Part shown: piece by piece, positions 8,110-53,016 of the stretch
Layout of the letters: the number at the start of each line of letters is the position of its first letter
How positions within the stretch are numbered: the first letter of the stretch is position 1
Source: an uncultured Saprospiraceae bacterium
GTDB taxonomy: Bacteria > Bacteroidota > Bacteroidia > Chitinophagales > Saprospiraceae
NCBI GenBank assembly: GCA_942492005.1
Contig: CALOED010000303.1
Span: 9,823-73,822, forward strand
Direction of reading: 5' to 3'
Length of the DNA: 64,000 bases
Program-made: the position numbers and the translations under genes
Notes under the pieces: generated by a model
Databases searched by the model: none
What the model saw: the letters and a program-made list of their open reading frames with translations, nothing else
Told to the model about the DNA's origin: nothing

Positions 8110-8295
8110 AGCGTCGTTTTTTTTTGAGCATAGTGTAATGCAGTATATATAGTAATTGTTGTTTGTTAATTATACTGCATGATATGACTTTATAAGGAGA
8201 TTCTTCGGATAGTCTGATATTTGAGATACTATGAGAAAATTTCTGCGAGGTGTTTTGTACCGAAAAAATGTGACATTAAAAATGGGCTAGAATAG

Positions 8296-8336
8296 CAAAA
8301 GCGCAGCCTTGTAATAAAATACAAAACTGCGCTTTC
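8296..8336 (-). terminator. putative rho-gene terminator hairpin
   Basis: AAAGCGCAG ... CTGCGCTTT 9-bp stem about 35 nt downstream of the rho stop. Flanks are T/A-rich on both sides. Confidence 0.4.
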
Positions 8337-8368
8337 TTTGAGCAATAGCCCCAAATAGCTTAAAAAAA

Positions 8369-10073
8369 TTAGCCATTCATCGAAATCAAAAACTCATCAT
8401 TATTGCGAGTTCCTTTCATTTGATTTTTCAAAAATCGCATTGCCTCTTCTGGATTCATATCACCTATATGTCGGCGCAATATCCACATACGATTCAGCGT
8501 CTCGCTATCCATGAGTAAGTCCTCACGTCGAGTGCTGGATTTGTTAATATCAATAGCAGGGAAAATCCGTTTATTCGCCAATCCTCGGTCAAGTTGAAGC
8601 TCCATGTTACCTGTACCTTTAAATTCTTCAAAGATAACGCTATCCATTTTAGAACCCGTATCGGTCAGCGCAGTAGCAAGTATTGTAAGAGAACCGCCAT
8701 TCTCGATGTTACGAGCTGCACCAAAGAACTGTTTGGGCTTGTGCAAAGCATTTGCTTCCACACCACCCGACAATACCTTACCACTAGCAGGAGCTACGGT
8801 GTTGTGCGCTCTTGCCAAACGAGTAATCGAATCCAAGAGAATAACTACATCGTGACCACATTCTACTAAGCGTTTCGCCTTTTCTAGTACAATGCTTGAC
8901 ACTCGAACATGACGTTCTGCAGGCTCGTCAAAAGTAGAAGCAACTACTTCTGCTCTTACGCTACGTTGCATATCTGTTACCTCCTCTGGGCGTTCGTCTA
9001 TCAATAATATTATCAAATAACACTCTGGATGATTTTTAGCGATAGCATTGGCAATATCCTTCAAAAGGAAAGTTTTACCCGTTTTAGGCTGTGCCACAAT
9101 CAATCCACGCTGTCCTTTCCCAAGAGGCGAGAACAAATCAATAATTCGAGTAGGATAATGAGTTGGCCCTAAAGGAATATTGAATTTTTCTTGCGGAAAA
9201 AGAGGAGTGAGGTAGTCGAAAGGTACTCTATCTCTAGCTTCTAAAGGCTCACGACCATTGATTAAAGTCACTTTTAGTAGCGCAAAATATTTTTCGCCTT
9301 CTTTTGGAGGACGAATAGCACCCTGCACAGTATCACCTGTTCTTAATCCGAATAATTTGATTTGAGAAGGCGATACATATATATCATCTGGAGAAGTCAA
9401 ATAATTGTAATCCGATGAACGTAAGAAACCATAGCCATCAGGCATCATTTCCAAAATACCCTCTCCTTCGATGATACCATCAAATTCGATATTGAATCGA
9501 GTATTTCGGCCACGTTTTTCTCGGTCTTTATTGTCTCGGTTATCACGATTGTCACGATTATCACGATTGTCCTTGTTACTTTTATTATCACGAGAGCTTT
9601 TTTCCTCTTTTTTGTAACGTTTTTCTTCCGCAGGCGGTGGCGTTTTGACTTCTTCTTTCTTCGCTTTTTCAGCCTTTTCGACCTCTTTCAGCGCAGGAGT
9701 AAGCCATTTCTTTCAAAAACTCTTCTTCTGTAATAATTTCTACCTCTGGCGCAACTTTCTTTTTGCGTCCACGGCTTTTATTTTTTTCCTCCTTCGCTTT
9801 TTCTTCTTCCGCTCTAGCTTCTTCCATTTCAGCTTTAGTACGACGACGACGCTTAGGTTTATTATCTACTTCTTCTTTAGTAGTTGTTTGTATTTCTTCT
9901 TCGTTTTGGTCGGCAGGAGGCGTATTTTTATTGCCTTCGATAGCTTGGTGGTCAAGAATTTTATAAATCAATTCTTGTTTGGAGAGCTTTTTATACTGGG
10001 TTAAGCCAATTCTATCTGCGATGTCTCGCAGTTCTGGCACCAGCATTTCGTTTAATTGCAAAATGTCGTACAT
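8369..10073 (-). pseudogene. rho: transcription termination factor Rho, reading frame interrupted by a 1-nt shift in the N-terminal insertion domain
   Basis: The 9672..10073 frame encodes the Rho N-terminal domain (MYDILQLNEMLVPELRDIADRIGL...). The frame open over 8369..9712 encodes the charged linker, the CSD-like RNA-binding domain and the ATPase ([17 protein letters not shown]). 10073-9454 is not a multiple of 3. The two open frames overlap only at 9672-9712. Confidence 0.85.
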
Positions 10074-10849: not shown

Positions 10850-12127
10850 ATGTTAGAATTAAAAGTAATCAGAACGCAGAAGGAGCGTGTTTTGGAAGGA
10901 TTGAAAGTAAAAAACTTTAAGCAACTCACGCTCGTGGATACCATTATTGAACTGGATGATAAGCGCAAAGCTATCCAACAAGAGCTAGACGAAATTTTAG
11001 CAAAAAACAATAGCGCATCCAAAGAAATAGGGCAACTATTCAGACAAGGCAAAAAAGAAGAAGCAAATGCGCTGAAAAATAGCATTGGTTCATTGAAAGA
11101 AAAGTCTCAAAACCTAAAAGAGGAACAAAACAAGGTATTGAGCGACTTGGACGAAGCCTTGATTCAGTTGCCGAATCTGCCGCATCCATCTGTGCCTGCG
11201 GGCAATTCTGAAGAAGATAACGAAGTATATCAAGCATGGGAAGGCGATTTTCCGAAACTACACGATGGGGCTGAACCTCATTGGGAATTGGCAAAAAAAT
11301 ACCAATTATTCGATTTAGAAATTGGCGCAAAAATCTCTGGCGCAGGTTTTCCATTATATCGAGGGCGTGGCGCAAAACTAGAGCGTGCGTTGATTAATTT
11401 TTTCTTGGACGAAGCCGAAAACGCTGGTTACGAAGAAATTATTCCGCCGCATTTGGTGAACGAAGCTACGGCTTACGGCACGGGGTCTTTGCCCGATAAG
11501 GAAGGGCAGATGTATTATGCCGAAAAAGATGATTTGTATCTTATACCAACTGCCGAAGTGCCGGTGACGAATATTCACAGGGATGAAATATTGGACGAAA
11601 AAGATTTGCCGATTAAATACACCAGTTACACACCTTGTTTCCGAAGAGAAGCGGGGTCTTATGGCGCACACGTCAAAGGCTTGAATCGAGTTCATCAGTT
11701 CAATAAAGTCGAGATTGTACAATTGGCGCACCCCGATAAGTCTTATGAAGTATTGGAAGAAATGCTCAATCACGTCAGAGGAATATTGGAAAAACTGGGC
11801 TTGCCTTACCGTATTTTAAGGCTTTGTGGTGGAGATGTGAGTTTTACTTCTGCGCTTACCTTCGATTTTGAGGTATATTCTGCCGCTCAAGAGCGTTGGT
11901 TAGAGGTCAGTTCGGTATCTAATTTTGAGACCTTTCAAAGCAATAGGATGAAACTTCGATTTCGTTCTAAAGAAAATAAAAAAACGCAACTCGTGCATAC
12001 ATTAAATGGTAGTGCGCTGGCGTTGGCAAGGATTTTTGCATCTATTCTCGAAAATTATCAAACGCCAGAAGGCATCGTAGTGCCAGAAGTATTGCGCCCT
12101 TATCTGAAATTTGAGATAATTGATTAA
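10850..12127 (+). CDS. serS: serine--tRNA ligase
   Basis: 425 aa with an N-terminal coiled-coil arm and a class II core (FRRE, GSALA motifs). Confidence 0.9.
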   Translation: MLELKVIRTQKERVLEGLKVKNFKQLTLVDTIIELDDKRKAIQQELDEILAKNNSASKEIGQLFRQGKKEEANALKNSIGSLKEKSQNLKEEQNKVLSDLDEALIQLPNLPHPSVPAGNSEEDNEVYQAWEGDFPKLHDGAEPHWELAKKYQLFDLEIGAKISGAGFPLYRGRGAKLERALINFFLDEAENAGYEEIIPPHLVNEATAYGTGSLPDKEGQMYYAEKDDLYLIPTAEVPVTNIHRDEILDEKDLPIKYTSYTPCFRREAGSYGAHVKGLNRVHQFNKVEIVQLAHPDKSYEVLEEMLNHVRGILEKLGLPYRILRLCGGDVSFTSALTFDFEVYSAAQERWLEVSSVSNFETFQSNRMKLRFRSKENKKTQLVHTLNGSALALARIFASILENYQTPEGIVVPEVLRPYLKFEIID

Positions 12128-12367
12128 TCGTAATATTTGTAAAAATAATGGAAGTTAGATAAGATTGTGGCATTAAATTCACAATTTTATCTAGCTTTTT
12201 AATTCTAGCTTTTAGCTAAGGCTTGTGACATATTTTTTAGGTTTTCGTCGAATACAACGAAATTTTAGTCTAATCCAAAGAACAGTCTATTCAATTATAC
12301 TGTTGAAAAAACATAAATTTTAACTATTTTAAAGATTTATATTATTAGAACAACACAAAATTAAAAA

Positions 12368-43884: not shown

Positions 43885-44061
43885 TCAGCTTCATTTAGTA
43901 TGGTTTCACTCAATATGGTGCAATACTTACTAGGACATCAATCTATTAAAACCACACCAATATATTTACATATCTCCGATAAAATGAGAAAAAATATTCA
44001 AAGCCTGCTTGATAGTTTAAATATTAAATTTATCTTTAACAACGTATCGCATTTTCAATGA
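43885..44061 (+). pseudogene. C-terminal remnant of a tyrosine recombinase/integrase
   Basis: My translation is ...SFSMVSLNMVQYLLGHQSIKTTPIYLHISDKMRKNIQSLLDSL.... The LLGH-x-S-x-x-TT-x-IY-x-H block holds the catalytic Tyr. The rest of the enzyme is missing and upstream frames are full of stops. Confidence 0.55.
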
Positions 44062-44321
44062 AATGCAAAGTGCGGAACCCCCTGGCGGGATATAGGTCAG
44101 TTTTGGTTTATGTCTCGACGTTCGACACCACCATTCCGCCAGAGGTCGAAACCATAAAATCCAAAATCTGCTATGCGCTAGAATTTTGAATTTATATTTG
44201 GCAGTATCGAACAATTCTAACATCGTCCATGCTTCGGCGAAAGCCTCGCACGGCGTTGTTGAACGTCCATTATGCACAATTAAAAAGAGACAACATGTTA
44301 AAGATTAAAAAAGACTGTACA

Positions 44322-45209
44322 ATGAAAAAATCAATTTTGTTTTTTGCTATTCTATTAATAACCCTGAGTAGTTGTAGAGAAGATGATAAAAATAATTCAG
44401 AGAGTTGCTATTCAAATACTAATGCACAGACCATAGTTCATGACGGTATCAATAGAGAGTATGTATTGTACATACCTAACTCATATGATGAGACATCTAC
44501 TGTTCCACTAATGCTGAATTTTCATGGTTTTGGTGGTAGTGCAAGTGATTACATGCAAGAAGCAGATATGCGCTCATTGGCAGAAGCTGATACTTTTATT
44601 TTAGTCTATCCTCAGGGTAGCTGTTTGGACGGTTCATCTCATTGGAATGCTTGTCTAAATGGTGGAGATAATAAAAGTGATGCTGATGATTTTGGTTTTG
44701 TTGAATCAATGATTAATGAGATTTCATCGCAATACAATATAGATATGGAAAGAATTTATGCTGCTGGATACTCAAACGGTGGTATGATGGCATATGGACT
44801 TGCGAACTATAAGAGTGATTTAATTGCTGCGGTAGCATCTGTTTCGGGAGTAATGTTAGATTGTACTGGACCTACAACTCATCCAATGCCGGTAGTGCAT
44901 CTTCACGGAACCTCTGATGGCGTTCTACCATATAATGGAGGTAATGGCTGGAACTCTGCACAAAGAACAATAGACCATTGGATTAATTTCAATAACACGA
45001 CTACAAATCCAACTGTAAGCAGCGACAATAGTGGAGGAATGACAATTGAACATTATGTATATGACCAAGGTGATAGTTTAGTGTCTGTGGAACATTACAA
45101 ATATATTGGAGGAGACCACATTTGGTTTAATTCAACTTTTCAAAGTCAAAGTACATCTGAATTAGTTTGGAATTTTGTATCACGATATGACATTAATGGA
45201 TTGAGATAA
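44322..45209 (+). CDS. secreted alpha/beta-hydrolase, PHB-depolymerase/LpqC-type esterase (lipoprotein)
   Basis: The start is taken at MKKSILFFAILLITLSSC (a lipobox) rather than 44229. It has an HGFGGSA oxyanion region and the nucleophile elbow GYSNGG. Confidence 0.75.
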   Translation: MKKSILFFAILLITLSSCREDDKNNSESCYSNTNAQTIVHDGINREYVLYIPNSYDETSTVPLMLNFHGFGGSASDYMQEADMRSLAEADTFILVYPQGSCLDGSSHWNACLNGGDNKSDADDFGFVESMINEISSQYNIDMERIYAAGYSNGGMMAYGLANYKSDLIAAVASVSGVMLDCTGPTTHPMPVVHLHGTSDGVLPYNGGNGWNSAQRTIDHWINFNNTTTNPTVSSDNSGGMTIEHYVYDQGDSLVSVEHYKYIGGDHIWFNSTFQSQSTSELVWNFVSRYDINGLR

Positions 45210-45228: not shown

Positions 45229-45295
45229 GCATAACAATGTGTATGTGTTCATAGCCAGCAAAAGCTGGCAACGCCACATACACCAAACGTTGGCA
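45229..45295 (+). other. attC-like imperfect palindrome (67 bp)
   Basis: GCATAAC-AAT-GTGTATGTG-[..GCCAGC AAAA GCTGGC..]-CACATACAC-CAAAC-GTTGGCA. It has no T-run and lies 20 nt after the esterase stop, preceded by an A15 tract. Confidence 0.5.
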
Positions 45296-45554: not shown

Positions 45555-46214
45555 ATGAAACTCAAAACACCTACAAAACAATTTATCGAAGAAATATTAT
45601 CAGAACATGATAAAGATGGAGGAAATATCAACAATGTTCCACTAAAAAAACTATTTGATGAATTTATTAGTCAAACAGATTTAGGAGAAGTTCGTCTTAA
45701 AGTTGCAGCTTTAAACAAATTATATTCAACTTCAATACAAAATATTGAACCTGTAGTTGAAAAAATAGTTGAAGTCTCTGAAAACTTTAATCCTCATAAT
45801 GTGGATGAATATCTCAAATTTATTGATGATATAGCTACCACAAATAAATGGATAACGAAAAAAGGCAAAGAAAAGCAAATAACTAATTTATCTTTTGCAT
45901 CTAAATATGTTCATTTTATGAGCAACTACAAAACACCAATATACGATAGTTATATCTGGATTCTCTTAAAAGGATATTTAGGACAAATGAAGAAAGAGAA
46001 ATTTACAAAAACGAAGCCCGAAAACTATATGGATTTTTATCGTAAATTTGATATGTTTCAAGAAGAGTTCAAATTAAAGTCTTTATCTATTTATGACATA
46101 GATAAATTTCTTTGGAAATATTGTAGAAAAATGCTGGCAGAAATAGAATCTAAAAACAATGTTGATTTGAACAAAGCAAAATCAATACTTTGGGAGCAAA
46201 TAAAAGCTCAGTAA
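45555..46214 (+). CDS. hypothetical protein (possible HhH/OGG-fold-like motif SFASKYVHF...PIYDS, weak)
   Basis: 219-aa ORF in the AT-rich island. The family guess is from memory of OGG-fold proteins seen in accessory regions and is not verified. Confidence 0.5.
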   Translation: MKLKTPTKQFIEEILSEHDKDGGNINNVPLKKLFDEFISQTDLGEVRLKVAALNKLYSTSIQNIEPVVEKIVEVSENFNPHNVDEYLKFIDDIATTNKWITKKGKEKQITNLSFASKYVHFMSNYKTPIYDSYIWILLKGYLGQMKKEKFTKTKPENYMDFYRKFDMFQEEFKLKSLSIYDIDKFLWKYCRKMLAEIESKNNVDLNKAKSILWEQIKAQ

Positions 46215-46278
46215 ATTATGAAAACTACATGGGAAAGTAATATTAAGTATGAAATAAAGAGCCTGCTGCCAACAAAAG

Positions 46279-46544
46279 CAGTTACTATGTAAAAACCAAA
46301 TAAAAGAGCCAAAAACATTAAAAAAAGTAAAATATATAACTTAAAAAGTGAATGATATAAAAATCCCATTACGTAGAGCGTTGGGTTCTATCGTTGAAAG
46401 TAAAAAAGCTAGCAGTTGATACGGTTTTTTTACGCTTTTAAAAACGGCTGCTTTGGGAAGTGATGGGCCGCAAAAAAAAGCAAGTATTAACAAAGATTTC
46501 TAACGTCTTTTACACAGAAAAGACTAGGATCCCCTATATGGTGG
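46279..46544 (+). repeat. 266-bp direct repeat, copy A
   Basis: Near-identical by eye (a handful of mismatches) to 48235..48500. It contains GTTGGGT at 46379-46385 and the start of a small ORF, MGRKKKQVLTKISNVFYTEKTRI. Confidence 0.9.
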
Positions 46545-46659
46545 CGATTTCTATTCGATACCAAGTTTTTGGGAAGGTTTAGTGGAACATGAATTATTTG
46601 ACCCACATCACCCTAATTGGAATGGAAGACCTTTTTACTAAAAGGAGATAATTTCGGGC

Positions 46660-47001
46660 ATGATGGATTTAATTGCGGCTTATATACGCTATACTCATGC
46701 AATTGGTGAAAACAATTTTGCAAACCATATTATGAAGTATCTTGGTATTTTAATACGAGTTACTCCATTTGCGACTGACGGAATAGGAAATGATAAACTT
46801 AATGGCTATATCGCAAGAAGGACAAATAAGTATATAGCAATGCTTTACGATGGAGTTCTTGAACACTATCTTGATGTATTCGACCTTAAAGACATAGCAA
46901 TTAAATCTTCAAAAAGAGGACATTCGATAGCAGAAACAGATGTCATTGCAATTCGAGAAAATATTAGATTAAGAAAACATCTATTTGAAGCAATGACTTA
47001 A
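46660..47001 (+). CDS. hypothetical protein
   Basis: 113-aa ORF. No motif recognised. Confidence 0.45.
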   Translation: MMDLIAAYIRYTHAIGENNFANHIMKYLGILIRVTPFATDGIGNDKLNGYIARRTNKYIAMLYDGVLEHYLDVFDLKDIAIKSSKRGHSIAETDVIAIRENIRLRKHLFEAMT

Positions 47002-47071: not shown

Positions 47072-47617
47072 GTGAAAAGACTTGATTTAGACATATTAAA
47101 AACAGGTATTCCAATTATTTCTAAGAAAATTGGAGCATTTTTGGCAGAAGCAGCAGCAATATGTCTGCATATGAACGGTTATAAATCGGGTGTAAAACTG
47201 AGAGTTGAGGGTGAAGTCAAAGATACTTTGATAATTGAATGGAACGATAAAATTACTGATGATGTTTTAAGTAGTTGGAATGATACACGAGAAGCAACAG
47301 AATTTGGAGCAACTGCGTTAGCTCTTTTGTTGTTGTTAGAATACACAAATTACACCTATTTCATAAGAGCTTTTCAAGGTACAGGAATAGACTATTGGTT
47401 AGGAAAAGGAAAATATACAGGAGAAGTATTACCAACAGAAGATAGAAAAGGACGATTAGAAATATCAGGTATTCTGAAACAAACTAAGGGAAATACTATT
47501 AATATGCGGATTAACCAAAAGAAAAAGCAGTCTAAACAAACGGATGATACAGAATTACCTGTTTATATTGTTGTGGTAGAATTTAGTCAACCTAAAGCTA
47601 AAATCATTAAGAAATGA
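47072..47617 (+). CDS. hypothetical protein, weak PD-(D/E)xK (Mrr/DUF4365-like) pattern
   Basis: 181 aa with a GTG start. The pattern E77 (TEFGATALALL), D107 (GTGIDYWL), E130 (RLEISGILK) is reminiscent of a restriction-endonuclease fold but lacks the canonical ExK lysine. The stop overlaps the next start (ATGA). Confidence 0.5.
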   Translation: MKRLDLDILKTGIPIISKKIGAFLAEAAAICLHMNGYKSGVKLRVEGEVKDTLIIEWNDKITDDVLSSWNDTREATEFGATALALLLLLEYTNYTYFIRAFQGTGIDYWLGKGKYTGEVLPTEDRKGRLEISGILKQTKGNTINMRINQKKKQSKQTDDTELPVYIVVVEFSQPKAKIIKK

Positions 47618-48177
47618 ATGTAATTAATATCATACATAATAAAGCAATTGAATTTGCGGATGAAGCAATCATAGCTAAACATAAAGGTAATCCTTCTACC
47701 GTTAAAGAATTGTATCTAAAAGCGTTTCAATTGGAAAAGGAAGCTGCTCTTTATGCACCTTTAGACAATGAAGATACAACACCAAGACATATTTTAATCC
47801 GAAGTGCGGCTTCCTTAGCTATGTTAAGTGAGCAGTTTGAAGAAGCAGAAAAACTGATAACTTTAGGTTTATCAAGTTCACCACCAAAATTTATTGAAAA
47901 AGAATTATTAACCTTAGCGAAAGAGGTAAAAAACCGAAAGGCAAATTACCTTAAAACCAATTTTATTCAAGTAGTTGGTTTGTTCACTTATGCAAACGCC
48001 AATGAAAACGAAATTAAAATTCAAGATAATAATCTTCCTTTCCTACATACTTTAATTGCACCTGCTAAACAAATTAAAATGCTTGTCAAAGAATATTTCT
48101 TAGAAAAAGTAAATGTAAAAGCGAGTGTTTCTTCTAATGGAATTTTACTGATGAAAGAAATGACAAAAATTCCTTAA
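47614..48177 (+). CDS. hypothetical protein, helical-repeat N-terminal half plus beta-rich C-terminal half
   Basis: 187 aa. It overlaps the previous gene by 4 nt, which suggests translational coupling. Confidence 0.5.
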   Translation: MNVINIIHNKAIEFADEAIIAKHKGNPSTVKELYLKAFQLEKEAALYAPLDNEDTTPRHILIRSAASLAMLSEQFEEAEKLITLGLSSSPPKFIEKELLTLAKEVKNRKANYLKTNFIQVVGLFTYANANENEIKIQDNNLPFLHTLIAPAKQIKMLVKEYFLEKVNVKASVSSNGILLMKEMTKIP

Positions 48178-48234
48178 CCGAAAAACCGTTTCAGATACAC
48201 AGATAAAATAATAAAAAAGCAACAGCCACAAAAA

Positions 48235-48500
48235 CAGTTACTATGTAATAACCAAATAAAAGAGCAAAAAACATTAAAAAAAGTAAAATGTATAACTTAA
48301 AAAGTGAATGATATAAAAATCCCATTACTTAGAGCGTTGGGTTCTATCGTTGAAAGTAAAAAAGCTAGAGGTTGATAGGGTTTTTTTACGCTTTTAAAAA
48401 CGGCTGCTTTGGGAAGTGATGGGCCGCAAAAAAAAGCAAGTATTAACAAAGATTTCTAACGTCTTTTACACAGAAAAGACTAGGATTTCCCTATATGGTG
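48235..48500 (+). repeat. 266-bp direct repeat, copy B
   Basis: Matches 46279..46544. GTTGGGT lies at 48336-48342. The small ORF with the same first 23-24 codons continues into different sequence. Confidence 0.9.
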
Positions 48501-48515
48501 CGATAATTACAAATC

Positions 48516-48602
48516 GTTCAACTCGCCTCCTTACGCCATCCGTGAAAATCGTGCGGTGGTCGGAATTGGTGGCGATGGCGTAGGGAGGCTTAGATGTTGG
48601 GT
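48516..48602 (+). other. attC-like imperfect palindrome (87 bp)
   Basis: GTTCAAC (fits RYYYAAC), then GCCTCCTTACGCCATC (48525-48540), a 33-nt loop, GATGGCGTAGGGAGGC (48574-48589, 15/16 complementary), TTAGAT, and GTTGGGT (fits GTTRRRY). There is no T-run. Confidence 0.55.
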
Positions 48603-48635
48603 GCTATTAGAAAAAATAAACAGAAAAACTAAGGA

Positions 48636-49460
48636 ATGTACAATCCTACTCATATATATTATATGAACACTATTCAATGTAATCAAAAATGCACTAAGTG
48701 TTCACATTGGAAATATAAAGACAACGCAGAAAGACTTCCAACAAGTAAAGTTGTCAAAGGAATTTTATCTATTCCAAATGCACAAGAATTATGTATTGTT
48801 GGAGGTGAACCTTTACTTTTCAAAAATGAGATTTATGAAATTTTAAAAGGTATATCGGAAACTCAAATAAGAACCGTAATAATTACAAACGGAGTTCCAA
48901 TGGACAAAGTATTCATAAATGAGGTGTCAAAATATAATGTCCATATTGTTGTTTCGATAGATACAATGGATAGAGACTTTTGGAAGTTTGTACGAGGTAC
49001 AAATTCTTATGATAAGGTTTTTCAAAATCTTGAATATGCGATAAATAATCTTGATAGACCTCAAATTAGTGTTCAGTCAGTTTTATCAAAGGAAACTGAA
49101 CCACATATGAAAGCTGTTGGAGAGTACGCTCAAGAGAAAGGTATTTACCATTCAATCCAAGATTATATTACTGAAGGCTTTGAAGGGAGTTGGACACCAA
49201 AGGAGCATAAAAAAGCATTTGTTCCAATTTTGGAGCAGCAATGTTATGCAGCAGGTAGAAATTTGTCTATTGTTCAGAATGGCGATGTTTATACTTGTTT
49301 TCAGCAAAATTGGATAAAAGACTGTAAAAAACCATTAGGCAATTTAAATTCAATGGAAATGACAGATATTCTCTCTTCTGATTATGCGGAAGTAGTAAGT
49401 GCAAAAATGAGAATATGTAATCTTCCTTGTAAAGTTTTAAAATGTAACACAAAGAACTGA
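48636..49460 (+). CDS. radical SAM protein with C-terminal twitch/SPASM-like Cys domain
   Basis: 274 aa with CNQKCTKC (C15, C19, C22) and GGEPLL. The C-terminal CYAAGRNLSIVQNGDVYTC fits C-x12-G-x4-C, followed by ICNLPCKVLKC. Confidence 0.8.
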   Translation: MYNPTHIYYMNTIQCNQKCTKCSHWKYKDNAERLPTSKVVKGILSIPNAQELCIVGGEPLLFKNEIYEILKGISETQIRTVIITNGVPMDKVFINEVSKYNVHIVVSIDTMDRDFWKFVRGTNSYDKVFQNLEYAINNLDRPQISVQSVLSKETEPHMKAVGEYAQEKGIYHSIQDYITEGFEGSWTPKEHKKAFVPILEQQCYAAGRNLSIVQNGDVYTCFQQNWIKDCKKPLGNLNSMEMTDILSSDYAEVVSAKMRICNLPCKVLKCNTKN

Positions 49461-50386
49461 TGAAATTTGAAGAAGTCATAGTCGAGTTAAGTTATAATTG
49501 TAATCTAAGCTGTACGATGTGCGGATTTGGTAAACACGTCAATCCATTCCACAAAAGTAAATTTTTGCCTTTTGAAAGCTATAAAGAAATTTTAGAGCAG
49601 ATAGGGGGAATTTCTAATACAATTCGATTGAATGGAAGAGGGGAAAGTACAATTCACCCAGATTTCAAGGAGATTTTAGATTACACGAAAAAGCGATTTC
49701 CGCAACTAAATATAAATTTATTTTCAAATATGTCATTTGGGAATGATAAAATATTGCAGAGTTTGATTAAAAACGATGTTCAGTTATTTATCTCAATGGA
49801 TAGTGCTAACAAACAGAATTTAGTTGCTATAAGACGAGGAGCTAAATTTGAGGATATCGTCAATAATATTAAAAAACTTAAATCTCTTTCAAAACGTCCA
49901 TTTATAATATTCACCATTCAAGAAGAGAATTTATTTGAAATTGCTGAGATTGCTAAATTTGCATTTGAAAGTAATTGTCACATATTATTCAATACGATAA
50001 GACGTGACAAGGGAATTGAGGTATTTGTAAAACTTGTTGAAGATAATAAGGGAAAAATCAAACAACAGTTTAATCAAGTAGCAGAATTGTATAACGATAG
50101 TAATTTACAATATCATCTCCCAGACCAATTGGCAGGAATTACTCTAAATTCAGAATATGCCAAGCAAACTCACGGAAGTATGAAAAATTGCCCAATACTG
50201 GACAGAGAACTTTGCATATTGTTTGATGGTACAGTTACTCCTTGTAATATGTTCAATCCATATATATATGGTAACATAAAAGAGCAAGGTTTGAAAGAGA
50301 TTTGGGAAGGAAGTAAAAGAAAAGATTTTTTAACATCACACAAGTATCACTACTACTGTAATAATTGTGCAAACCTTGGGATGTAA
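49460..50386 (+). CDS. radical SAM/SPASM domain protein
   Basis: 308 aa with CNLSCTMC (C14, C18, C21). The C-terminus CPILDRELCILFDGTVTPCN...YGNI...CNNC is SPASM-like. The start overlaps the previous stop (TGATG). Confidence 0.8.
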   Translation: MKFEEVIVELSYNCNLSCTMCGFGKHVNPFHKSKFLPFESYKEILEQIGGISNTIRLNGRGESTIHPDFKEILDYTKKRFPQLNINLFSNMSFGNDKILQSLIKNDVQLFISMDSANKQNLVAIRRGAKFEDIVNNIKKLKSLSKRPFIIFTIQEENLFEIAEIAKFAFESNCHILFNTIRRDKGIEVFVKLVEDNKGKIKQQFNQVAELYNDSNLQYHLPDQLAGITLNSEYAKQTHGSMKNCPILDRELCILFDGTVTPCNMFNPYIYGNIKEQGLKEIWEGSKRKDFLTSHKYHYYCNNCANLGM

Positions 50387-51342
50387 TGAGTTCAATATCC
50401 AACTTGCCTTATGGTAAAATACTTGATTATTGGTATGAAAACCTAAAAGGACATAAACACAGAAATAAATTTTTACTTACTAAGTTCATCGAAGCATTTA
50501 TATTCAAGTCGAGTTCGAAAAATACAAATTTAGAATATGAATATATTCCGTTTCCAATAGGTAAAAAGCATAACTTACCAATAAAACCCAAAATAGCTTT
50601 GGTAATACCCGTTTATGCTAAATCAAATAAAGATATTCAAAACCTAAAAAATTTGTTTGGGTCAATTGAAAACCTTGAATACAAACCAGATAATGTTGTA
50701 ATAATTGATGATAAATCACCTTTGAATTATAGTGTTCCGAAACAATATTTGAAGCTGAAGAATGAAATAAATTGTGGTCCAGCAAAAGCAAGAAATAAAG
50801 GAATCGAAACAGCATTAAACACTGAAGTAGACATTATCGCATTTACTGATTCCGATTGTCTTCTTGATAAAGATTGGATAAAGCAAATCATTTTTCATTT
50901 TCAACAATATCAAACTTGCGGTATAGTTTCAGGTAATACCATTTCAAAAGACAATCATTGGTTTGGGACGTATCACAATATAAACGGAACATTGAATGGA
51001 AGGAAATTTAAAAACTCAAATAGGTTGCTTTATGGAACTACTGCAAATCTCGCAATTACAGCGGAGGTGGGAAAAAGAATAAGATTTAATGAAAAATTCC
51101 CTAATGCAGCAGGTGAAGATATTGAATTTTGTTTTAGAGCAAACAAAGAAGGCTTTGAGATAAACCATAGCCGAGAAATGGTTATTTTTCATAATTATGG
51201 ATATGCGAAAAGAATTTTTGATAGTCTGAGAATATTCAGAAATCAATTTAGAAAATATGGAAAGGGAGAACAAATACTCCTTGAACAAATTCCGGAATAT
51301 TATGCTTATTTCAATGAAACAGAAGAAATTAAAGCAGAATAA
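50386..51342 (+). CDS. family 2 glycosyltransferase
   Basis: The start is taken at MSSISNLPYG (a TAATG overlap with the previous stop), in frame with the track ORF 50365..51342. It has VIPVY...IIDDKS...DSD...GEDIEF motifs typical of GT2. Confidence 0.75.
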   Translation: MSSISNLPYGKILDYWYENLKGHKHRNKFLLTKFIEAFIFKSSSKNTNLEYEYIPFPIGKKHNLPIKPKIALVIPVYAKSNKDIQNLKNLFGSIENLEYKPDNVVIIDDKSPLNYSVPKQYLKLKNEINCGPAKARNKGIETALNTEVDIIAFTDSDCLLDKDWIKQIIFHFQQYQTCGIVSGNTISKDNHWFGTYHNINGTLNGRKFKNSNRLLYGTTANLAITAEVGKRIRFNEKFPNAAGEDIEFCFRANKEGFEINHSREMVIFHNYGYAKRIFDSLRIFRNQFRKYGKGEQILLEQIPEYYAYFNETEEIKAE

Positions 51343-51865
51343 AAAATATGCCACCCAATAAACAAGGCTGCTAGCGGCTGGCAAGCCTGTCGGCAGACAG
51401 GTTTGAACGACATCGCCCCCCGACCGAAGCGACCGACCCAAAATCCAACTGAAAATCGAGAAAAAACCTCTACTATGGGGAATGGCTGCAAGACAATGCC
51501 TCATAGGAATAAATATTTAAGAGTCAATGAATTAGAAAATTCATAAAAACACACCGCATTGGACTAAACATCAAACTTACTTTTGAAGCACGGTATTAGC
51601 AGCTAAAAACATATCAATTTATTCGTAGAATAGGAATAGTGCCATTAAAAAGTTATCTTTAGCTTTAGTTATTTATCCGCTAACATTTTACTATTCTGGT
51701 TTTATCAGCGTTTACCAAAACACTTCTACAACCAACCTTTGACTATCAATACAATAGCTACCAGATTAATGCCTGATAACTAATTAGTCATCATTTCTCA
51801 GGATTTCATCCAGATGTTTGTTTATTTCATTAATGGCAAATCTTCTTAATAAAAAAAAGAACACT

Positions 51866-53016
51866 ATGGGGTTATCAAAAATCGGGGTTATTGGAACTTC
51901 AAAGAAAGAAGACGAAAGGCGTGTTCCTATTCATCCAGAACATTTAAAAAGGCTTCCAGAACACATTCGCAAAAAGCTCATTTTCGAAAAAGGATATGGC
52001 ACACCCTTCAACGTGGAAGATGAAGAAATAGTGGAGCAAACTGGGGGCATGGCCACAAGGTCAGAGATATTGTCAGACCTTGGGTCGGCTATCATCGCTA
52101 AACCCATCTTAGCAGATTTAGAAGAATTGAAAGAGGGCGGAATTCTTTGGGGCTATCCCCATTGCGCGCAGCAAATGCAAATCACCCAAACCGCAATTGA
52201 TAGAAAGCTAACCTTAATTGCTTTTGAAGATATGTTTGTGTGGAGCCCAAATGGACGAATTGGTAGACATACCTTTTATAAGAACAATGAAATGGCAGGC
52301 TATAGTGCAGTCATCCATGCCTTGCAACTCAAAGGAATTGACGGACATTATGGCAACCAAAGAAAGGCGATTATTTTTAGTTTCGGTGCAGTGAGCAGAG
52401 GAGCTATTTATGCCTTAAAAGCTCATGGATTTAGAGATATCACCATCTGCATTCAAAGACCCGACCATGAAGTGAGAGAAGAAGTATTAGATGTAAACTA
52501 TACGCGCATTGAAAAAGGAGAAAGCCAATGAGCCTCGACTACTAAAGTGGTGGAGCATGACGGAACGAGAACGACCTCTTATTAGATTTGATAAGCGAAT
52601 CAGAAATCATTATTAATGGCACTTTTCAAGATCCCGAAGACCCTATCAATTTTGTAAATGAGGATGAAAAAGCCAGCCTCAAGCCTGGCACATTGATTAT
52701 TGATGTGAGCTGTGATGAAGGCATGGGGTTTTATTTTGCTAAGCCTACTACTTTTAAAAATCCTATAATATCTGTGGATAAGATTGATTACTACGCAGTT
52801 GATCATACACCTAGTTATTTTTGGGAAAGTGCTTCAAGGTCTATTTCCGCTGCTATGATTGTGCATTTACCTTCTGTGCTAGGCGGCCCCTCAGCTTGGG
52901 AGCAAAACGCAACCATCAAAAATGCCATCAACATAGATAAAGGAGTAGTGGTGAAAGATGCCATTCTTAAATTTCAAAACCGCCAAGCGAATTATCCGCA
53001 TAACGTAATGAATTGA
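51866..53016 (+). pseudogene. AlaDH/PNT-fold dehydrogenase, N5-(carboxyethyl)ornithine synthase-like; at least two lesions
   Basis: The N-terminal ORF (MGLSKIGVIGTSKKEDERRVPIHPEH...) ends at an in-frame TGA at 52529-52531. The same frame continues ASTTKVVEHDGTRTTSY to a stop at 52583-52585. The C-terminal part (IIDVSCDEGMGFYFAKPTTF) is in another frame, open from 52561. Confidence 0.65.

Follow-up and report, generated by a model that had tools for sequence, protein, structure and literature searches.

A mobile radical SAM–radical SAM–glycosyltransferase triad carried as an integron gene cassette in an uncultured Saprospiraceae bacterium

What is the role of a compact block of two radical S-adenosylmethionine (SAM) enzymes and a family 2 glycosyltransferase (GT2), with no obvious substrate gene, in the genome of an uncultured Saprospiraceae bacterium, and how did it come to be there? 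The three genes, referred to here as rSAM1, rSAM2 and GT2 and together as the triad, lie at 48636–51342 of a 64,000-nt stretch of contig CALOED010000303.1 (positions 9,823–73,822; assembly GCA_942492005.1), which is the window throughout. An initial annotation, made from the sequence alone, proposed alteration of a surface glycan relevant to phage adsorption, with maturation of a ribosomally synthesized peptide with post-translational modifications (RiPP) as the alternative. On the evidence of its ends, the block in the window is a single integron gene cassette. Its function is suggested, tentatively, to be UDP-pentose-dependent tailoring of a small molecule, probably in biological conflict.

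A three-gene integron cassette

The genes for rSAM1 (48636–49460; 274 aa), rSAM2 (49460–50386; 308 aa) and GT2 (50386–51342; 318 aa) are all on the forward strand and are translationally coupled, with 1-nt stop/start overlaps at TGATG (49458–49462, rSAM1/rSAM2) and TAATG (50384–50388, rSAM2/GT2). The GT2 start is fixed at the ATG at 50386, since the homologues of this protein all begin MSS. The block is 31% G+C and its surroundings 38–41%, in keeping with its original description as AT-rich, and its treatment as one unit is borne out by the overlaps and by the retention of gene order and length in about 45 independent loci.

Upstream, a canonical attC site occupies 48516–48602 (forward strand), with R'' GTTCAAC at 48516–48522 and R' GTTGGGT at 48596–48602. 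It forms the 3' end of the preceding cassette and gives an imperfect hairpin on direct folding (-18 to -20 kcal/mol, z = -3.2); its recombination point, G|TT, sets the start of the triad cassette at 48597. At the other end, a recombination site at 51353–51410 (forward strand) consists of an R''-like core, ACCCAAT (51353–51359), followed by non-canonical sequence ending near GTTTGAA. This site folds weakly (-9 to -12 kcal/mol, z = -1.5) and is convincing in its core only; a terminal attC that has decayed, on the border of the low-GC island, is its probable origin. The cassette so delimited runs from 48597 to 51359 on the forward strand, and its first bases, TTGGGT, are the complement of the core at its 3' end, ACCCAA(T). 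The attC-like site and the ACCCAAT motif that were originally seen to bracket the operon are both integron recombination sites.

Comparison with other genomes places the ends in the same positions. Nucleotide homology to the closest relatives (L004, L005 and L006; 83–89%) begins at 48593–48623 and stops at 51329–51363, so that it covers exactly the stretch between the recombination point and a place shortly after the GT2 stop codon. Each of these loci has its own pair of ends: TTAGCA/TGCTAA(C) in L004, TTGGCG/CGCCAA(T) in L006, and, with one mismatch, TTGGCG/CGACAA(T) in L005. In L004, attC hairpins are present on both sides of the triad. Complementarity of 5' and 3' ends with differing cores is what circular excision and re-insertion of a cassette predicts, and its presence in four genomes is the reason for calling the block an integron cassette. 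Counts of GTTGGSW cores over the whole window (26, with 24 expected) are not above chance, so the case rests on the hairpins, the positions and the 5'/3' complementarity. The attC bounds and complementary ends of a cassette are thus present, and an adjoining IntI is absent.

What remains of a recombinase is at the head of the cassette array, where a 53-aa ORF (43900–44061, forward strand) encodes the C-terminal remnant of a tyrosine recombinase of the Xer/IntI type, scoring 27 bits with the integron integrase model (cut-off 265) and 30.5 bits with the XerA/IntI model. The ORF list, in which other ORFs of the window are not annotated, has no recombinase-sized ORF within several kb of the array that could be an intact integrase. 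The array looks like a decaying or integrase-less attC cluster, and the block is one case of an integron cassette with several genes in the Bacteroidota. A promoter and terminator scan of the locus gave nothing above chance, and the window contains no Rfam match and no tRNA.

Distribution of the triad

Homologues were sought in one genome per species, giving 61 loci. By tblastn, rSAM1, rSAM2 and GT2 occur in the same order in about 45 of them, always over 2.69–2.72 kb and with flanks that are unrelated between loci. The hosts include Bacteroidota, Desulfobacterota (Desulfobacterium), Gammaproteobacteria, Thiohalomonadaceae, Fibrobacterota, Lachnospiraceae, Mollicutes (Acholeplasmataceae, Izemoplasmatales), Spirochaetia, Verrucomicrobiota and Myxococcota (Myxococcales). 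Bacteroidota copies are 62–64% identical to those of Desulfobacterium or Thiohalomonadaceae, which indicates horizontal transfer, and 40–50% identity is kept in the wall-less Mollicutes and in phyla with unrelated envelopes. Each of the proteins has hundreds of close homologues, under generic source names only ("radical SAM protein", "glycosyltransferase"). A whole-library HMMER search also showed that the two radical SAM proteins are naturally fused in some genomes, as in an rSAM–rSAM protein of 685 aa (P0377) followed directly by a GT2, which is independent evidence that the enzymes work together. A phage origin was considered and rejected: 2.9 million viral contigs yielded one true match, beside three serine recombinases and without structural genes.

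Two loci have distinctive junctions. In a Desulfobacterium locus (L001), a group II intron at 8236–9180, with reverse transcriptase and maturase fragments and a domain V-like 3' end, abuts the triad start, and on the downstream side there are an IS91 transposase and a Xer-like recombinase. In a member of the Chitinispirillia (L002), the triad lies between an HsdS N-terminal fragment (9069–9185) and an HsdR C-terminal EcoR124_C fragment (11914–12129), and looks as if it had been inserted into a type I restriction locus, or put in place of its middle part.

The radical SAM enzymes and the glycosyltransferase

Both radical SAM proteins have the features of the SPASM/twitch group: CxxxCxxC, a GGE-type motif, a partial TIM barrel, and C-x9-15-G-x4-C with further cysteines that would serve one or two auxiliary clusters. 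Their Pfam scores are 60 bits (Radical_SAM) and 24.8 bits (SPASM) for rSAM1, and 65 and 52.5 bits for rSAM2, the SPASM scores of both being above the cut-off. The cluster motif is C15-x3-C19-x2-C22 in rSAM1, with GGEP as the SAM-binding motif, and C14-x3-C18-x2-C21 in rSAM2, with GRGES. Behind the radical SAM core, rSAM1 has an abridged SPASM domain with a six-cysteine pattern (C203-x12-G-x4-C221, C230, C261-x3-C265-x4-C270), and rSAM2 a SPASM/twitch domain with five conserved cysteines (C244-x12-G-x4-C262, C252, C300-x2-C303, with 173 as a further position); these are conserved among 53 rSAM1 and 49 rSAM2 homologues. The C-terminal cysteines noted originally are thus present in both proteins, and the last motif in rSAM1 has to be amended from CxxxxCxxxxC to C-x3-C-x4-C. 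By cysteine count (C-x12-G-x4-C ... CxxC), rSAM2, and not rSAM1 as originally labelled, is the more BtrN/twitch-like of the two.

In the AF2 models (pLDDT 91 for rSAM1, 87 for rSAM2), the first TIM-barrel strand begins at residue 6 and residue 3, respectively, and there is therefore no N-terminal RiPP recognition element (RRE), as already suggested by the location of CxxxCxxC at residues 14–22. Pfam and NCBIfam likewise give no RRE or PqqD match in rSAM1, rSAM2 or GT2. The top Foldseek matches of the two models are SkfB, SuiB, anSME, CteB, MoaA, BlsE, BtrN, DesII and viperin. Both enzymes belong, as modelled, to the SPASM/twitch clade, within which the fold matches do not separate peptide-acting from sugar-acting enzymes. 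A PDB sequence search gave weak matches only, to viperin, TigE, SkfB and BtrN, and a Foldseek viral library only generic phage radical SAM proteins at no more than 19% identity. The best curated matches of rSAM2 are a tungsten (W)-cofactor oxidoreductase maturase (85 bits over the full length; cut-off 380), AhbD and NirJ2; in NCBIfam, rSAM1 also matches this maturase, and NirJ1.

The third protein matches Pfam Glycos_transf_2 (53 bits), with D155-S-D157 as its DxD motif and a GEDIEF motif. Its N-terminal 40 residues, including LDYWYEKL, are highly conserved, as is a C-terminal tail, PEYYAYF..TEEI; both are family-specific and may be docking elements. This GT-A enzyme has no hydrophobic segment (highest 19-residue Kyte-Doolittle score 0.69), and by hydropathy analysis all three proteins are soluble. 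Its best curated match is MftF of the mycofactocin pathway (NCBIfam; 68 bits, E = 5.8e-19, cut-off 280), followed by weak NCBIfam matches to exopolysaccharide (EPS) glycosyltransferases (35–38 bits); the PDB sequence search returned only generic GT-A N-terminal halves, weakly. Overall, Pfam, NCBIfam and PADLOC give superfamily-level matches only for all three proteins, none reaching an NCBIfam family cut-off.

Three giant proteins of 1431–1927 aa (P0399, P0401 and P0402), related to rSAM2 at E = 1e-41 to 1e-43, have three or four tandem rSAM–SPASM modules; a B12-binding domain is also present in one of them, and in one there is a weak match to CBM6 that stays under the threshold.

Sugar-nucleotide genes and a sister family

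Clustering of flanking ORFs identified only two kinds of recurrent neighbour: UDP-xylose synthase (UXS) or a UXS-like short-chain dehydrogenase/reductase (SDR), and UDP-glucose 6-dehydrogenase (UGD); every other gene is common to a few loci at most. One or the other is found in 10 of the approximately 45 loci, upstream of the triad in some and downstream in others. Three loci (L019, L031, L032) have a true UDP-glucuronate decarboxylase downstream (E = 8e-125 to human UXS1), and six (L034, L036, L038, L040, L041, L070) have a UXS-like SDR upstream, the best matches of the UXS-like SDRs being UXS1 and the UDP-4-keto-pentose/UDP-xylose synthase model; UGD accompanies the SDR in four loci. These independent arrangements argue for a functional link, and suggest a UDP-pentose derived from UDP-glucuronate, as UDP-xylose or in the 4-keto form, as the probable donor for GT2. 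The sugar connection first drawn from the pairing of a twitch-type enzyme with a GT2 gains support here.

A sister family, 25–30% identical, keeps the two radical SAM enzymes and the GT2, with an SDR in eight of 16 loci and an added P-loop gene resembling small-molecule kinases in nine. Its parts are a conserved 75-aa ORF (MSFFDL...DLRWH.ALY...FL.LRVVQ), located upstream of an rSAM2-like gene with an N-terminal extension, the P-loop kinase-like gene, an rSAM1-like gene, a short GT2 and the SDR. Hosts include Myxococcales, Rhodobacteraceae, Planctomycetota, Chloroflexota, Candidatus Buchananbacteria of the candidate phyla radiation, and Thermoplasmata. Some loci have a third radical SAM gene and a possible sulfotransferase, the latter recognized by motif only, with no Pfam match. 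Sister loci are found in L051–L064 (e.g., L055, 9700–15800, and L061, 280–4500). Homology between the 75-aa ORF and the N-terminal segment of GT2 was considered and rejected (hhalign probability 0.2%).

Genomic context and proposed function

Genes of conflict and mobility are common around the triads. Strong PADLOC matches among 112 immediate neighbours include a type I restriction endonuclease, the candidate-defence families PDC-S01, -S02, -S13, -S41, -M19A and -M62A/B (E = 1e-90 to 1e-264), AbiEi, DrmC/phospholipase D (PLD) and a caspase. Pfam adds a Schlafen helicase, DarT1-NADAR and DUF4238, and individual loci have HsdS/HsdR remnants, Bro-N, SoFic, a PRTase-CE STAND protein, an NYN RNase, CHAT and AAA_5; type I restriction genes adjoin the triad in L004 and L002. 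Mobile-element neighbours are group II introns, IS91, helicases of integrative and conjugative elements (ICEs) and serine recombinases. Integron cassettes are documented carriers of phage-defence systems (bioRxiv 10.1101/2024.07.02.601719; PMC12614218). Like cassettes of that kind, the triad is promoterless, attC-bounded and low in G+C, in an array of cassettes of unknown function; it differs in being unusually large, with three genes in 2.8 kb, and in the lack of an intact integrase for its array in the window. Together, the cassette, ICE and recombinase-flanked cargo settings and the restriction and defence neighbours make a role in conflict the most likely one.

The reading put forward here, at a little under an even chance, is that the triad is a self-contained mobile module for UDP-pentose-dependent tailoring of a small molecule, probably related to conflict. 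UDP-pentose would be supplied by the host or, in some versions of the triad, by linked ugd/uxs genes. GT2 and the two radical SAM enzymes would act as a stoichiometric complex, as suggested by the gene overlaps and by the rSAM–rSAM fusion. Through 5'-deoxyadenosyl radicals and their auxiliary clusters, the radical SAM enzymes would oxidize, dehydrate, decarboxylate or cross-link the sugar or its acceptor; two-electron oxidative radical chemistry, in the form of dehydrogenation, dehydration, decarboxylation or C–C coupling, is what the auxiliary clusters suggest. The complex would tailor a glycoside that derives from UDP-pentose and has a small ubiquitous molecule as its acceptor. The substrate would be a ubiquitous small metabolite, with a nucleotide, nucleoside or sugar-nucleotide as the favoured guess, or else a molecule derived from an invader, and neither a dedicated peptide nor a cell-surface polymer. 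The role could be anti-phage, by way of a viperin-like toxic or chain-terminating product, or antagonistic, by way of a nucleoside-type antibiotic.

A bolder version, and an unlikely one as it stands, would have the triad turn UDP-pentose and a common nucleotide or nucleoside into a radical-tailored, glycosylated antimetabolite, either a chain terminator in the manner of viperin or a nucleoside resembling tunicamycin or blasticidin, which would block phage replication or competitors: a new kind of conflict system, cassette-packaged for almost any bacterium.

Several points weigh against the small-molecule reading. No RNA runs or exact DNA runs matching the locus were found. The inference of the donor sugar rests on gene linkage in about a fifth of the loci, and most of the linked SDRs are 33–37% identical to true UXS and fall under the NCBIfam cut-offs. 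The defence context is guilt by association, taken without a matched background rate, and cargo regions of mobile elements hold many other functions. PADLOC 2.0 has no model for the triad, and its matches are limited to weak pVip-like ones for the radical SAM proteins and none for GT2; viperin-type scores are 57 bits in NCBIfam (cut-off 180) and 63 bits with PADLOC pVip (no curated cut-off). Finally, the closest structural relatives of the modelled proteins include the peptide- or protein-modifying SkfB, SuiB, CteB and anSME, so the substrate may be a protein.

Comparison with known systems

Prokaryotic viperins (pVips) are RRE-less radical SAM enzymes that act on a ubiquitous nucleotide and are located in defence islands, sometimes with a kinase. 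Viperin models are the top NCBIfam and PADLOC matches of rSAM1, and viperins are also among the fold matches. The alignment is however limited to residues 9–115 of rSAM1, the N-terminal core, and the C-terminus is of SPASM type instead; viperins are single genes with no SPASM/twitch auxiliary-cluster domain and no need of a glycosyltransferase. Neither a whole-protein pVip score nor the C-terminal nucleotide-binding extension was found.

BtrN (2-deoxy-scyllo-inosamine (2-DOIA) dehydrogenase), DesII and BlsE (cytosylglucuronate decarboxylase) resemble the triad enzymes as small RRE-less radical SAM proteins with C-terminal auxiliary clusters and sugar or sugar-nucleoside substrates. As fold matches they have query-length TM-scores of 0.52–0.73 at 10–18% identity, and BtrN is also a sequence match of rSAM2, but they rank no better than the peptide maturases, and none is part of a mobile rSAM–rSAM–GT2 triad.

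In hopanoid side-chain synthesis, HpnH, HpnI and HpnJ comprise two radical SAM enzymes and a GT2, HpnJ being of the B12 type; tunicamycin synthesis uses TunA (an SDR), TunB (a radical SAM enzyme) and TunD (a glycosyltransferase). The shared logic is a radical SAM step on or near a sugar or nucleoside combined with UDP-sugar transfer. These pathways are however lineage-specific clusters and not three-gene cassettes, the HpnH match to the triad is weak (32 bits), and no hopanoid or tunicamycin genes are present with it.

The mycofactocin system likewise combines a SPASM radical SAM enzyme (MftC) with a soluble GT2 (MftF) that glycosylates a small product. Besides the low MftF score given above, MftC scores 32–40 bits (cut-off 265), and MftA, MftB, MftD and MftE are all missing. 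The triad further differs in having two radical SAM enzymes instead of one, in its linkage to UDP-xylose genes and in being cassette-borne.

No description of the triad was found in the literature, and none of the curated families or defence models names it. The component families are ordinary; the conserved mobile triad with its UDP-xylose linkage is an undescribed arrangement. If the product is indeed a bioactive molecule derived from a sugar or nucleoside, chemical defence against phage, or antagonism, would have a second radical SAM route besides that of viperin, and a gene family whose hundreds of members have generic labels would gain a function. As a test case the triad is compact, with three genes plus two that supply UDP-xylose, and is easily moved to a laboratory host.

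Alternative functions

A rather unlikely alternative to small-molecule tailoring is that the triad modifies a protein or peptide, which the SPASM enzymes would cross-link or oxidize and the GT2 glycosylate. The substrate could be a peptide with its gene elsewhere, a protein of the host or of a phage, or GT2 itself, at its LDYWYEKL or PEYYAYF..TEEI segments. Structurally, the RiPP and protein maturases already named match best; among them, anSME shows that RRE-less SPASM enzymes are able to act on proteins, and the best curated match of GT2 belongs to the peptide-derived mycofactocin pathway. The aromatic-rich termini of GT2 are more conserved than much of its catalytic domain and are absent from the sister family, which has the conserved 75-aa ORF; this ORF is not homologous to the GT2 N-terminus. 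Against a peptide substrate, besides the missing RRE, ORF clustering within 700 nt on either side of 44 triads gave no conserved small ORF, only alternative-frame shadows of coding ends. Neighbour analysis found no linked protease or exporter, the UXS/UGD linkage is silent on peptides, and it is implausible that a cassette passing from phylum to phylum should depend on a precursor encoded in trans. Protein modification with neither RRE nor cis-encoded precursor would also be unusual.

The precursor originally suggested was the 54-aa ORF (MGRKKK...) just upstream of the cassette, the coordinates of which are corrected here from 48421–48585 to 48416/48419–48583. It overlaps the second copy of a 278-nt direct repeat (see below) and runs into the attC site, its C-terminus differs in the other copy, and it has no counterpart beside any other triad. 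With no conserved small ORF elsewhere, and this one in an attC-containing repeat, a cis-encoded RiPP is argued against; the RRE and the conserved adjoining precursor gene of a RiPP maturase system are both lacking. Small ORFs upstream of the triads in L001 and L002 were also rejected as precursors: the former is the end of a group II intron, the latter a remnant of HsdS.

That a modified sugar is made or transferred onto a surface glycan (lipopolysaccharide (LPS), capsule or other), altering phage adsorption, now seems very unlikely. Surface polysaccharides are a common product of GT2 enzymes, genes that supply UDP-xylose point to a building block for glycans, and there are the weak EPS glycosyltransferase matches; on the other side, GT2 lacks a membrane segment, the triad has no linked gene for a flippase, a polymerase, chain length or export, and the block moves as a three-gene cassette. 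The initial annotation had named closest homologues in ordinary O-antigen or capsule loci as the finding that would count against it; these were looked for, and no such context was seen in any locus, nor were the assembly genes or membrane association expected of one. The triad is moreover maintained in the wall-less Acholeplasmataceae and Izemoplasmatales and in phyla with unrelated envelopes. The lack of flanking small ORFs, the solubility of the proteins, the genomic contexts and the presence in Mollicutes together disfavour both the cis-encoded RiPP and the surface glycan. Of the original interpretation, the single unit, the lack of an RRE, the integron sites and the sugar link are retained, and the surface glycan and the 54-aa precursor are not.

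Equally hard to credit is cofactor or metalloenzyme maturation for a host enzyme, whether a mycofactocin-like glycosylated redox cofactor or a maturase pair (on the models of the tungsten-cofactor-oxidoreductase radical SAM maturase, AhbC/AhbD or NirJ1/NirJ2): the curated matches of all three proteins point this way, and paired SPASM enzymes act in sequence on small molecules in haem and haem d1 synthesis, but the scores are far under the family cut-offs (85 vs 380; 68 vs 280), the triad has no linked gene for a partner oxidoreductase, MftA/B/D/E or tetrapyrroles, and the patchy, cassette-borne distribution is unlike that of a housekeeping cofactor.

Other features of the array

The first cassette-like unit of the array, at 44229–45209, encodes a lipoprotein-type esterase (polyhydroxybutyrate (PHB)-depolymerase/alpha-beta hydrolase family) and is followed by a good attC hairpin at 45229–45295 (GCATAAC ... 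GTTGGCA). The 5' end of the next cassette, TTGGCA, matches TGCCAAC at 46267, the R'' of this second cassette; further cores are at 45289, 46380 and 48336.

The direct repeat, on the forward strand, has its first copy at 46272–46548 and its second at 48228–48504 (96–97% identical), each with a GTTGGGT core (46380; 48336–48342). It was not found elsewhere in the window or in the fetched loci L001–L064, and is probably a duplicated attC together with the 5' end of the next cassette. On its minus strand are very hydrophobic ORFs of 44–53 aa (48191–48325 and 46208–46369), which could be small membrane toxins like those of type I toxin–antitoxin systems, or AT-rich noise.

The other ORFs of the low-GC cassettes (45555–46214, 46660–47001, 47072–47617 and 47614–48177) have no Pfam, NCBIfam or PADLOC match; the last two, which share 4 nt (ATGA), resemble a two-gene unit. 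Just beyond the low-GC island, two adjacent ORFs on the same strand (51818–52531 and 52588–53016; 237 and 142 aa) may each be half of a single interrupted gene.

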